Both the position numbers and the translations under genes were made by a program. Of a stretch of 64,000 nt of DNA, positions 46,703 to 48,789 are shown in pieces. The stretch is from a phage. The stretch is from sequence record PQ478073.1. The stretch is one strand, 5' to 3'. The notes under the pieces are model-generated. The model saw only the letters and a program-made list of their open reading frames with translations. It was not told the DNA's origin and ran no database searches. Positions within the stretch are counted from its first letter, which is position 1. Each line of letters starts with the position of its first letter.

Positions 46703-46814
46703 TTAAACACAAGTAGACAGGGGAAGCTCCTAGTGAACAACCTTTATGTACAGGCGAATTGTTAAAATTCAGCCTGGACAAATGCGATCACTAGGATTCT
46801 CCCCAGGCTAAACC

Positions 46815-47096
46815 CCGTAATCATAGGTAGTCATAAGTAATCATATATAAACATTTAAGTAATCATTTATAATCACTGTATTGATCAGTAGTGATCAGTA
46901 GTGAGTACTAGAGTACAGGAATGTTCACGTTTAATCAAGAACGTAGCAGTACTGCCCCAAAAGTATTCAGTACTGAAGGTGTCGATATCCCACTAAGTAG
47001 GCAGAGGAAGTCTGCCGTACTTTGTAGTTTCCAAGCTCCTTTTCCATTTTGCAAATTACATCAAATGTAATCAAAAGTAATCACGCAATGATTAGT
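46815..47096. repeat. cluster of short GTAATCA iteron-like repeats
   Basis: At least six GTAATCA copies in both orientations plus GATCAGTAGT x2. Confidence 0.45.
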
Positions 47097-47360
47097 ACTG
47101 AATTATTACTTTCACCTTAATTTCAATTACCCCTTTACCCTTCGGGGTAAAATTCAATTACCCCTTGAGGCTCCAGCAAAAAGTTGGTTAGTACTCCATC
47201 CTAAATCTCGATCCTAAAAATTTTGGAGTACCTATGAAATAAAAGTTGGATCTTCGAAAGTTGAAATTTACGTTGGGACGTTTATGATTTGTGGGATATA
47301 ATGATGTTTGTAGTCGGGTAGTTCTCAAGAATATCAGTACTGAAAGATGAAAGAAAGTTA

Positions 47361-47388
47361 TTGACTTTATGATTCAGTACTGTATAAT
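47361..47388 (+). promoter_or_regulatory. promoter TTGACT-N16-TATAAT (AGTACTG-TATAAT type)
   Basis: TTGACT 47361-47366; TATAAT 47383-47388. Confidence 0.55.
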
Positions 47389-47770
47389 GTTCTACATAGC
47401 TTCAAGGGGTGATGAGTTGCTGCGAACAATTCATTTACTCTACCTCCTGTCGTGAGACAGTACAGAAAAGATAGTTCCTCCTGTGGTGGTACATCTTTTT
47501 GAACCTCATATGAAAATCGTAATAACAGTACTGATATTAACAGAATGGTGTCAGTACTGATTTTAATCTAAAGCATTATGCCACCAGCTTGTGCTGGTGG
47601 ATTCCCTCTAACAGTATTCAGTACTACATGATGGTCTTCATCCTCCTAGGGTAACATAGTGAGGGCTATGATGGCAGTACTGAATACTCCCTTTCAAAAG
47701 ATAGATCTATGGTATAGTACTGACGGATTTTGGGTGTAGTTACCCTGGGTGGATTTTGGACGTAGATATG

Positions 47771-47912
47771 TCTAGCCCTCCAGAAGTCTGGAAGTAAAGA
47801 TGGCTATCCATCTAGACGGCTAAACGGCTAGATTTCTGGATGGCTGGATGGCTAGACGTTTGGACGGCTAAACGGCTAGATGGTTACACGTCTGGAAGTA
47901 TAGACGGCTAAA
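47771..47912. repeat. degenerate short-period repeat array
   Basis: GACGGCTAAA x3, GGATGGCT x3, GTCTGGAAGTA x2 in a non-coding stretch. Confidence 0.5.
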
Positions 47913-48535
47913 TCAAAATTTTATTTTGTTTTTTCCAATAGTTCCCCTACCGCGTGGGGATAGTTTCCCCGCAGTATCTGGAGTTAGATTTTTCTGAATC
48001 TGGAATCATTATCTTATAAACTGGGGGCAATGTCAACGACCTGGACGGATATTTTTAAAAATTTTTTCAGTACTGAATTTTGGGCGTAACTATGCACCCG
48101 GTGGGCTTGAGTCTTTCTCGACTTGATGGAACTATTATACAGTACTGAAAAAATAAAGCAATACCCTGGAAGCAAAAAAGTTTTAATTAATTTGCTTGCT
48201 ATCCTGGGCCGGACTATGGTACTATATTTCAGTACTGAGAAAGTGCGTTTACCTGCTAGGGTGCGGGAGTGTATCCTTTTTTTATATCTTGAATTTTGGG
48301 CGTAATTCCGCACCCTCTGGGGTTTCCGCTTTCTCGCGTCTATGTAGTAATTATACGCTTTTTCAGGATCAAGTCAATACCTAAAAACAAAATAATTGAA
48401 AATAATTTAATGCGTTTAAACGGCCCGTAAAGCCCTGGAATGATTGGAATGGTGCAAATGTATAGCTTAGGTGTATTAATGCGTTAGAATGCGTCTGAGG
48501 CCGTTTTACGGGGTGTAGTAGTGATTTGGTTGATT

Positions 48536-48675
48536 CAGTACTGAATAATAGTACTACTATATAGAAAGATAGTTCCCCTGGATGGTTGCAGTACTGAATA
48601 ATAGTACTACTATATAGAAAGATAGTTCCCCTGGATGGTTGCAGTACTGAATGATAGTTCCCCTATATAGAAAGA
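48536..48675. repeat. 53-bp direct tandem repeat, 2 full copies plus a partial third
   Basis: Units 48536-48588 and 48589-48641 identical; third copy truncated. Confidence 0.75.
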
Positions 48676-48706
48676 AAACTATTTTAAAAGTATTTGTAGA
48701 AAGTAC

Positions 48707-48766
48707 TTGCACCGTACTGATAAAAGCGTATAATGTTTTACATCGAGAGCGGGAACACTTCCCGCT
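48707..48766 (+). promoter_or_regulatory. early-type promoter plus 5'UTR hairpin
   Basis: TATAAT 48729-48734; hairpin AGCGGGAA-cac-TTCCCGCT 48748-48766. Confidence 0.6.
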
Positions 48767-48789
48767 ACACATTAAGAGAGATTAAAACG

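Follow-up and report, generated by a model that had tools for sequence, protein, structure and literature searches.

Phage T7 has a terminal repeat of 160 bp and, next to it, short repeat units of the CCTAAAG type. In phage T5, DnaA boxes lie in untranslated repeat regions of the terminal repeat, and the role assigned to them there is an in silico proposal; this is the nearest published idea to the arrays described below. For the jumbo coliphage fEgEco12, the genome paper reported direct terminal repeats (DTRs) of 20,993 bp, which were located with PhageTerm and confirmed by restriction digests. Can such a terminus be recognized in a related genome, and what does the DNA beside it contain? Here, we analyzed a gene-free, repeat-rich region (positions 46703 to 48789) of a 64,000-nucleotide stretch of phage DNA (PQ478073.1; from here on, the window), which a first-pass annotation had read as a candidate replication origin or packaging hub. 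We find it most probable that this segment is the left junction of an ∼21-kb DTR together with the untranslated leader of that repeat, which holds cis-acting elements. The terminus is already known for relatives of this phage; the anatomy of the leader, above all an array resembling operators of the host repressor MetJ, appears to be undescribed.

By sequence similarity, the window belongs to an Asteriusvirus (a 121Q/PBECO4/phAPEC6-like jumbo coliphage). A megablast search with positions 46000 to 49500 matched 74 phage records, 33 of which cover at least 80% of the query at 92 to 96.5% identity; these well-covering matches are all Asteriusvirus jumbo coliphages (e.g., 121Q, PBECO4, and phAPEC6) with genomes of ∼350 kb. 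In phAPEC6, the equivalent 2 kb sits without annotation between gp540c and gp539c, and in other records tiny open reading frames (ORFs) were called automatically at the equivalent place (in JP4, and g614 in fEgEco12). The linear records of five relatives, deposited independently (fEgEco12, vB_Ec-M-J, CRJP21, BF17, and BAU.Micro_ELP-22), begin at AGTAGGCAGAGG, which corresponds to window position 46996; base 1 of fEgEco12 and base 1 of vB_Ec-M-J both align to this position. The vB_Ec-M-J record has a DTR annotated at 1..21525. In fEgEco12, positions 1 to 120 are identical to 353741 to 353860, that is, in both DTR copies, and the DNA before the right-hand copy aligns with window positions 46696 to 46995. 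Because base 1 of the relatives aligns to 46996 and the right-hand DTR copy follows the same unique sequence, the packaged chromosome is expected to begin inside the region. The terminal-repeat test was made in the relatives; the window itself contains a single copy of the repeat. Judged from these alignments, 46703 to 46995 is the last unique DNA, and the DNA from 46996 onward is the repeat, which runs beyond the end of the window. The packaging half of the first-pass annotation is therefore upheld, with the left end of the packaged chromosome (the left DTR boundary) mapping to 46996. The position of the terminus explains the large "empty" gap in every Asteriusvirus annotation.

The cut site, GATATCCCACTA|AGT, lies at 46984 to 46998 on the + strand, with A46996 as the predicted first base of virion DNA on the evidence of the relatives' record starts and the PhageTerm and digest results for fEgEco12. 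Its context, CAGTACTGATAT(G/C)CCACTA|AGT, is by sequence comparison conserved across two genera, and PhageTerm places the end of Klebsiella phage Muenster (genus Alcyoneusvirus) in this context too. The PhageTerm-derived repeat of Muenster is at 1..20030, and its record ends in ...TTCAGTACTGATATGCCACTA and starts with AGTCCG. The junction reads ...CAGTACTGATATGCCACTA|AGTAGG in most Asteriusvirus genomes, and ...CAGTACTGATATGCCACTA|AGT also occurs in Muenster and in three metagenome contigs. When IMG/VR was scanned for the cut-site motif, 121Q itself was the only match, and the same scan of metagenomes yielded 3 true relatives and 6 chance matches within bacterial genes. An exact cut-site sequence common to two genera serves the study of packaging in jumbo phages with 20-kb terminal repeats. 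The right DTR boundary of the window phage falls outside the window, and the comparison of boundaries was made with relatives (AACCT|TAGCGAC in fEgEco12, AGGCT|TAGCAC in Muenster, and AACCT|TTAGCGAC in vB_Ec-M-J). Read into the repeat, the core CTA|AG is common to the left cut and to two of these three right-hand boundaries, which hints weakly at a pair of inverted cut sites on the two sides of the repeat. A shared inverted motif, CTA|AG ... CT|TAG, at both boundaries fits fEgEco12 and Muenster and is shifted in vB_Ec-M-J; it was kept as a weak observation.

The statement of the first-pass annotation that 46703 to 48789 holds no convincing ORF agrees with our data. With a cutoff of 45 amino acids (aa), the region has six ORFs, of 46 to 99 aa; none of them matched a PHROG family, and the lengths of the region's ORFs differ among relatives. 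Substitutions counted by codon position in three of these ORFs ([23,19,19], [10,12,9], and [13,11,7]) revealed no codon periodicity, compared with 21 third-position changes versus 9 and 5 at the other positions in the first real gene. On these three grounds we rejected a coding reading of all six ORFs; coding potential was looked for by comparative genomics among the relatives and was not found. Across 47100 to 48499, the number of variable columns per 100 bp ranges from 10 to 53 (mean, ∼23) versus 34 in the first gene. The noncoding 1.8 kb to the right of the cut, the DTR leader, is better conserved than the adjacent genes. This bears on the engineering of these phages, several of which are therapy candidates, as the leader is probably not dispensable spacer DNA.

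Which elements could mark the cut? About 200 bp to its left lies a block (46756 to 46810; fold z = −2.4) that is invariant in seven of seven aligned Asteriusvirus genomes and whose flanks diverge. It consists of the palindrome GAATTGTTAAAATTC, an inverted repeat (AGCCTGG at 46771 to 46777 and CCAGGCT at 46803 to 46809), and the core GCGATCACTAGGATTCTC (46784 to 46801). Muenster (CGTGATCAAACGGATTCT) and metagenome contig L028 (GTCGATCCAGAGGATTCTC) have this core equally far from the end but lack the flanking inverted repeat. On the basis of its position and conservation, this block is a candidate recognition site for the end-processing machinery. Copies of GTAATCA flank the cut at 46996 on either side. 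To the left, phased copies occupy 46817 to 46875 on the + strand (−179 to −121) with spacings of 10, 10, 22, and 10 bp; the first three are kept in all aligned Asteriusvirus genomes and absent from Muenster and thus genus specific. To the right (47067 to 47095), alignment of the relatives revealed two copies (+72 to +88) plus an inverted copy, TGATTAG, and vB_Ec-M-J has three direct copies there. Exact copies on the + strand number 5 in 267 bp (at 46817, 46837, 46859, 47067, and 47077), and the two strands of the 64 kb together have 19 copies versus 15.8 expected; Tandem Repeats Finder (TRF) reported a period of 10 with 4.8 copies for this stretch. The first-pass description of GTAATCA iterons at 46815 to 47096 is thus correct as to the repeats, with five exact copies in an ∼10-bp phase, and incorrect as to iterons, since the cores are 7 bp and not 17 to 22 bp long.

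Three further features lie close to the end. A variable segment (46878 to 46976) contains 2.7 copies of GTAGTGATCA (46878 to 46904) and two CAGTACTG palindromes (at 46947 and 46968), and a 30-bp indel within it duplicates the CAGTACTG palindrome in the window phage and in fEgEco12. A terminal hairpin with a 9-bp stem, GTAGGCAGA-GGAAG-TCTGCC-GTAC (46997 to 47020), starts 1 nt from the chromosome end; it folds at −10.7 kcal/mol (z = −3.9) and is kept in six of seven genomes. Repeat and fold analysis also revealed two direct copies of TTCAATTACCCCTT (47122 to 47166) around the hairpin TTTACCC-TTCG-GGGTAAA, which had been noticed in the first pass and whose exact place is 47134 to 47151.

Inside the leader, conserved sigma-70-like promoters are predicted in both directions. 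Two point rightward (47273 to 47388, + strand), namely, P1 (TTGGGA-18-TATAAT, 47273 to 47302) and P2 (TTGACT-16-TATAAT, 47361 to 47388). The first-pass annotation had counted P2 as part of the architecture of an origin or packaging site; the site has 11 of 12 matches, and both of its hexamers are conserved in 7 genomes. The P2 spacer contains CAGTACTG, and a strong promoter-like site occupies the equivalent place in Muenster and in Erwinia phage pEa_SNUABM_47. Downstream of P2, the stretch from 47394 to 47560 (+ strand; minimum free energy, −52.7 kcal/mol; z = −3.9) may encode a structured noncoding transcript with three hairpins, the third followed by TTTTT (47497 to 47501), and a long hairpin of two CAGTACTG (47526 to 47559); the transcript predicted from P2 is ∼105 nt long. 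Four of its pairs carry compensatory changes among only 5 distinct sequences compared, and such changes keep the first hairpin in two divergent genomes. The only small ORF in this stretch has lost its ATG in JNE01. On the − strand, three leftward sigma-70-like promoters (48036 to 48008, 48161 to 48134, and 48377 to 48350) fall in a block (48008 to 48377) that shares 67 to 71% identity with Klebsiella phages Muenster and K64-1. Two of these promoters each stand at the head of a repeated unit of ∼55 nt (48127 to 48075 and 48343 to 48291), with CCGCACCCTCTGGGGTTTCCGCTTTCTCGCGTCT at 48308 to 48341; these paralogous units hold the element CCGCACCCTCTGGGGT.TCCG.TTTCTC.CGTCT, which is also present in Klebsiella and Erwinia jumbo phages, pEa_SNUABM_47 among the latter. 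A rightward promoter-like site, TTGCTA-18-TACTAT (48196 to 48225), precedes another ∼55-nt unit (48196 to 48283 in all, + strand), which ends in the terminator-like hairpin AGGGTGCGGGAGTGTATCCT and a run of seven T's; its fold is unremarkable (z = −1.0), and it is conserved in Muenster minus the T run. The first gene of the terminal repeat follows with its own putative promoter, TTGCAC-16-TATAAT (48707 to 48734), a hairpin in the 5′ untranslated region (5′ UTR; 48745 to 48768), and a start codon at 48790 (48707 to 48792, + strand).

Given these units, one potential explanation is that clustered genes for small regulatory RNAs make up most of the region and that the DNA repeats arose incidentally as promoters and terminators were duplicated. 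We regard this as possible but doubtful. Several promoter-plus-hairpin units of 50 to 110 nt are present on both strands, they are conserved in Klebsiella and Erwinia phages, and in the two paralogous leftward units the first hairpin changes in a compensatory manner (AGTC/GACT versus CGC/GCG). However, a search of 45500 to 50000 against Rfam in permissive mode gave no match at an E value of ≤1, most single-unit folds are unremarkable (z = −1.0 to −2.4), and two units only end in a U run. A cluster of RNA genes would also leave the met boxes, the GTAATCA repeats, and the cut site unexplained. ARAGORN found no tRNA or tmRNA in the whole window.

The most regular element of the leader is a periodic array, which the first-pass annotation had placed at 47771 to 47912 as GACGGCTAAA/GGATGGCT without identifying it as met boxes. 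The array is borne out at 47766 to 47909, and its true period is 8 bp (TRF periods, 8, 16, 24, and 48). MetJ binds tandem 8-bp AGACGTCT boxes, and the units of the array (AGACGGCT, AAACGGCT, GGATGGCT, AGACGTTT, ACACGTCT...) resemble this sequence. We scored the array with the met-box weight matrix and thresholds of Augustus and Spicer, in which a unit must reach at least one-quarter of the consensus score (3.15 bits) and a site must sum to at least 12.58 bits. Sixteen of 18 consecutive 8-bp registers score as met boxes, 14 of them uninterrupted (47798 to 47909). These 14 boxes, in register and each of 3.8 to 10.7 bits, sum to 102.8 bits and form the sole such array in the 64 kb; two further good boxes lie just upstream of 47798 in the same register. 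By comparison, the longest run in 200 dinucleotide-preserving shuffles of the window was 0 to 4 boxes, and relatives of the window phage have 13 to 15. The array, which lies at +771 to +914 from the chromosome end, conforms to the published sequence definition of a MetJ operator (unit score and at least two adjacent units). An IHF consensus match, AATCAAAATTTTA (47911 to 47923, + strand), adjoins the array; it is conserved and is one of eight such matches in the 64 kb on both strands.

A blastn search with the array matched 86 records. Besides Asteriusvirus, the carriers include Eneladusvirus jumbo phages of Erwinia, Serratia, and Yersinia; phage GAP32; T5-like phages of Vibrio, Aeromonas, and Providencia; and the T7-like phages PGT2, phiKT, and KPV811. 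The same matrix gave 9 boxes in PGT2, 15 in Vibrio phage Pontus, 14 in pEa_SNUABM_47, and 11 in fHe-Yen9-04. In the T7-like PGT2, the array is inside an exact 260-bp DTR, and in Asteriusvirus and Eneladusvirus it lies 650 to 920 bp from the record start. MetJ is found only in Enterobacterales, Pasteurellales, Vibrionales, Aeromonadales, and Alteromonadales, and 85 of the 86 array records have hosts in MetJ-bearing orders. Muenster has no met boxes. It has Fur-box-like sites with up to 16/19 matches, 10 of them with at least 13/19 in its first 1.5 kb versus 0.7 in shuffles. Those with 14 to 16/19 matches (GATAATGATTCTCATT) cluster at +787 to +905, with others at 1073 to 1097, 1300 to 1324, and 2422 to 2446 (L011), and the metagenomic relatives of Muenster (L025, L026, and L028) have Fur-like sites at +769 to +870. 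The Fur-like sites of Muenster-like phages therefore occupy the same offset as the met boxes of Asteriusvirus. No Fur box with at least 13/19 matches was found inside the region of the window phage. Literature searches for MetJ or Fur arrays in phage genomes found no paper describing them. The array is much longer than any host operator. At least four phage groups that are unrelated to one another have it in their terminal repeats, and a sister genus has Fur boxes in its place. As a separate observation, single Fur-like boxes (14 to 15/19) adjoin a conserved CCGCACCCTCTGGGG element in Yersinia and Erwinia jumbo phages.

What could such arrays do? As a tentative proposal, in which we place less than even confidence, unrelated DTR phages (T7-like, T5-like, and several jumbo myovirus genera) may carry super-arrays of host-repressor operators in or by their terminal repeats, on which a filament of host protein would be a required cis part of chromosome-end entry, protection, insulation, or processing, possibly coupled to the S-adenosylmethionine (SAM) or iron status of the host. 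Most lineages would have MetJ operators and the Klebsiella jumbo phages Fur operators, and the DnaA boxes of T5 may belong here as well. If true, this would be a kind of phage cis element not recognized before, one in which metabolic repressors of the host serve a structural purpose; if MetJ binds, these phages would use a host metabolic repressor as an end-associated structural factor or as the target of a sponge.

The second of these roles, in which the array is a decoy, would have it titrate MetJ as the genome replicates, with two copies per genome of 14 to 16 boxes each, and so de-repress the methionine/SAM regulon of the host. The Fur-box arrays of the Klebsiella relatives would do likewise for iron uptake, and the location at the end would be incidental or would serve early entry. 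We consider this account a serious rival, although rather unlikely. Host MetJ operators have 2 to 5 boxes, and the array is 3 to 7 times longer than these and adjoins no gene; the sister genus has operators of another metabolic repressor (Fur) at the same position, and phages reportedly manipulate SAM and MetJ, e.g., through SAM lyases. However, T7- and T5-like phages also carry the array and would gain little from the de-repression of host genes, and titration leaves the consistent placement in or near terminal repeats unexplained. Well-studied T5-like and T7-like phages shut off, silence, or degrade host DNA within minutes. A cis role is somewhat more likely than titration, both because phages that are unrelated have the array within or close to their terminal repeats and because the host DNA is destroyed or silenced early by T5- and T7-like models. 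The replacement by Fur boxes in the sister genus fits a cis role and titration alike.

Taking the segment as the left DTR junction with its leader, we can propose how the elements would work together. In concatemers, the terminase or an end-processing nuclease would be positioned by the core at 46784 to 46801, by the GTAATCA repeats on either side, and by the adjacent CAGTACTG palindrome. The cut would be made after CCACTA, and duplication of the repeat would follow, as other DTR phages do it. Once the DNA has entered the cell, the RNA polymerase of the host would use the sigma-70-like leader promoters to make short, structured noncoding transcripts in both directions, and from 48707 onward it would transcribe the small early genes of the repeat. 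MetJ with its corepressor SAM would polymerize on the array, with IHF beside it, and so form an end-proximal nucleoprotein block acting in cis. Such a block might, for instance, act as a barrier to transcription from two promoters that converge on it, the rightward P2 and the leftward one at 48036, or it might be an architectural mark for end processing or entry.

Several points weigh against this reading or parts of it. The start of virion DNA at 46996 would apply to the window phage by analogy with relatives that are 93 to 97% identical. The GTAATCA repeats and the upstream core are tied to the terminase by position alone, and the CTA|AG core shared by both DTR boundaries is only 5 bp long and offset by 1 nt in vB_Ec-M-J. 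The leader promoters and their transcripts are predicted; promoter-like sites in 45.5 to 50 kb are not above chance (16 versus 16.9 expected), and the covariation support for the P2 RNA depends on the two divergent genomes. As to the array, real operators typically lie within ∼75 bp of a translation start, whereas the nearest gene start (48790) is 880 bp off. Because of this distance, the array is operator-like DNA and neither a regulon operator nor a classical one. Most of its boxes have G, not T, at position 6 (GGCT), and the binding of MetJ is likewise predicted. Finally, the exception among the 86 array records is a jumbo phage, Xanthomonas phage XbC2 (OP292654.1), which has the array at 647 to 756 and whose host should lack MetJ; either its host assignment or range is unusual, or the array is independent of MetJ.

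A replication origin, the other half of the first-pass annotation, could coexist with the terminus, and we consider it improbable. The repeats would be iterons, and transcription from the promoters would open or prime the DNA; the models for this are the R-loop origins oriF and oriG of T4 and the primary origin of T7. The conserved promoters with short noncoding transcripts predicted in both directions, the IHF consensus, and the strong conservation of noncoding DNA would all suit an origin. The cumulative GC skew also has a local minimum at ∼46.7 to 47 kb despite + strand genes on either side, but this minimum is seen at the scale of the window only, and the gene array at 42 to 46.7 kb has an unusual composition itself. 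Skew marks origins poorly in phages that replicate in the T4 manner. No DnaA box (TTATCCACA, ≤1 mismatch) was found in 46600 to 48900. The A/T-rich DNA reported in the first pass is not there either, as the GC content of the region is 0.38 to 0.39 versus ∼0.35 for the window and no 50-bp stretch reaches 86% A+T, so that no unwinding element is seen. The repeat units are 7, 8, or 53 bp long or are palindromes, not iterons of 17 to 22 bp, and each class has another plausible reading. The neighboring genes encode no Rep-like domain, and no initiator gene adjoins the region. With no DnaA box, no A/T-rich unwinding stretch, no adjacent initiator gene, and no iterons, the origin half of the annotation was not borne out. 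The least probable account by far, in which the region has no function of its own and is either coding sequence that has decayed or a scar left by a mobile element, could cite the small ORFs called in JP4 and fEgEco12 (g614) and the several repeat copy numbers that vary among relatives, but the region is more conserved than the adjacent genes, its modules are conserved across three genera, and it has neither codon periodicity nor a protein-family match.

The commonest repeat of the region, the palindrome TCAGTACTGA, was missed in the first pass. At ≤1 mismatch it matches 53 times in the window versus 2.35 expected, and 13 exact copies of CAGTACTG lie within the region. The hexamer AGTACT occurs 281 times in the 64 kb versus ∼22 expected from base composition, compared with 85 for the next palindromic hexamer, and is densest at 44001 to 52000. 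Even in predicted coding DNA it is ∼10-fold over-represented in all frames (3.5 per kb), and it reaches 8.5 per kb in noncoding DNA. The preferred context is T-n-C-AGTACT-G-n-A, and there is a second class, AAAGTACTTG, which overlaps the −35 boxes of promoters. Klebsiella phage Muenster (9 per kb) and Erwinia phage pEa_SNUABM_47 (6.8 per kb) show the same excess, and the T7-like and T5-like leaders examined do not, which suggests a lineage-specific phage factor or DNA modification targeting AGTACT. Literature searches on the CAGTACTG/AGTACT motif found nothing relevant. AGTACT was rejected as a site for SlmA, whose consensus we take to be GTGAGTACTCAC, since a G directly 5′ of the palindrome is the most depleted flank (8%) and C is preferred (43%). 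Sites for LexA, TrpR, Fur, and CpxR were considered for the GTAATCA and AGTACT repeats by eye or by counts of consensus matches only, and none was convincing. In contig L025 (OIET01000809.1, Muenster-like), the first 99 nt, read in the orientation of the cut site, hold at least nine tandem copies of TTCAGTACTA that run up to the contig end, directly upstream of the cut site. Judged from this contig, the palindromes clustered next to the terminus can expand in the manner of a microsatellite.

The 53-bp tandem repeat that had been noted in the first pass was confirmed (48536 to 48675, + strand; 2.6 copies; TRF score, 252); each unit begins with CAGTACTG, and the copy number ranges from ∼1 to >3 among relatives. 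The motif GTTAGAATGCGT, which had been listed as recurring at ∼53430 and ∼57180, has exact copies at 48483 and 57181, and what lies near 53440 is an inverted partial copy, TTAATGCGTTAGAA. In the hairpin CCACCAGC-TTGT-GCTGGTGG (47581 to 47600), the loop is exactly inverted (ACAA) in phage JP4 and the stem is the same, which is the signature of inversion at a DNA palindrome.

The genes on either side of the region are real, and each matches a PHROG family of unknown function. The left flank is a + strand array of paralogues of ∼60 aa. About 20 such tandem genes, apparently paralogous, fill 42118 to 46702, the last one belonging to PHROG 11711; their number varies among relatives, and the array has a clearly negative GC skew (−0.11 to −0.27) and a strongly positive AT skew (reaching 0.25), an unusual composition for a coding strand in the window. 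Farther left, 29709 to 41790 on the − strand holds 11 consecutive paralogous ORFs of 358 to 402 aa, whose phAPEC6 counterparts are annotated as RCC1-like "regulator of chromosome condensation" repeat proteins. The right flank consists of small + strand genes, each with a repeated promoter/5′-UTR cassette in front. This cassette, a promoter plus 5′-UTR hairpin (AAAGTACTTGCA...TATAAT...GAGAGCGGGAACACTTCCCGCTAC), occurs at 48686 to 48787 and before many small genes at 49 to 64 kb; it shares ∼77% identity with DNA between genes of the rV5-like phages (Phapecoctavirus), an unrelated group of 150-kb myoviruses.

How does the locus compare with known systems? The array shares with the MetJ operators of the Escherichia coli met regulon the AGACGTCT-like 8-bp units that abut in register, the CT|AG junction, and per-box scores in the accepted range; it differs in having 14 to 16 boxes instead of 2 to 5, in not lying within ∼75 bp of a gene start, and in preferring GGCT in the right half. 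Around the cut, short candidate recognition repeats and a nearby IHF site recall cosB of phage lambda and pac of P1, and the GATC-containing repeats beside the cut are a further likeness to P1 pac. Those phages, however, package by cohesive ends or by headfuls and have no exact long terminal repeat, and there is no sequence similarity. The untranslated repeat regions in the long terminal repeat of T5, with their "injection stop signal" and paired DnaA boxes, resemble the leader described here in that both are conserved above the surrounding genes and both hold ordered binding sites for a host DNA-binding protein that oligomerizes on DNA. The repeat of T5 is 10 kb long, with 8 DnaA boxes close to its right end, whereas here there are no DnaA boxes and 14 to 16 met boxes ∼0.8 kb from the left end. 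Paired DnaA boxes in inverted repeats, as in an injection stop region of the T5 type, were not found, and the general layout alone is common to both; T5 transfers its DNA in two steps, which the window phage is not known to do. With T7 and T3, the difference lies in the repeat units, which in T7 are of the CCTAAAG type and not met boxes, and in the size of the repeat (160 bp versus 21 kb here). The likenesses to T7 and T3, phages that process concatemer junctions, extend from the exact direct terminal repeat and the site-specific cut at its boundaries to the arrays of short repeats and small G+C hairpins (CCC-N3-4-GGG, TTCG loops) near the end. They also include strong host-type promoters just inside the end and, ∼200 bp beyond the repeat, an inverted repeat.

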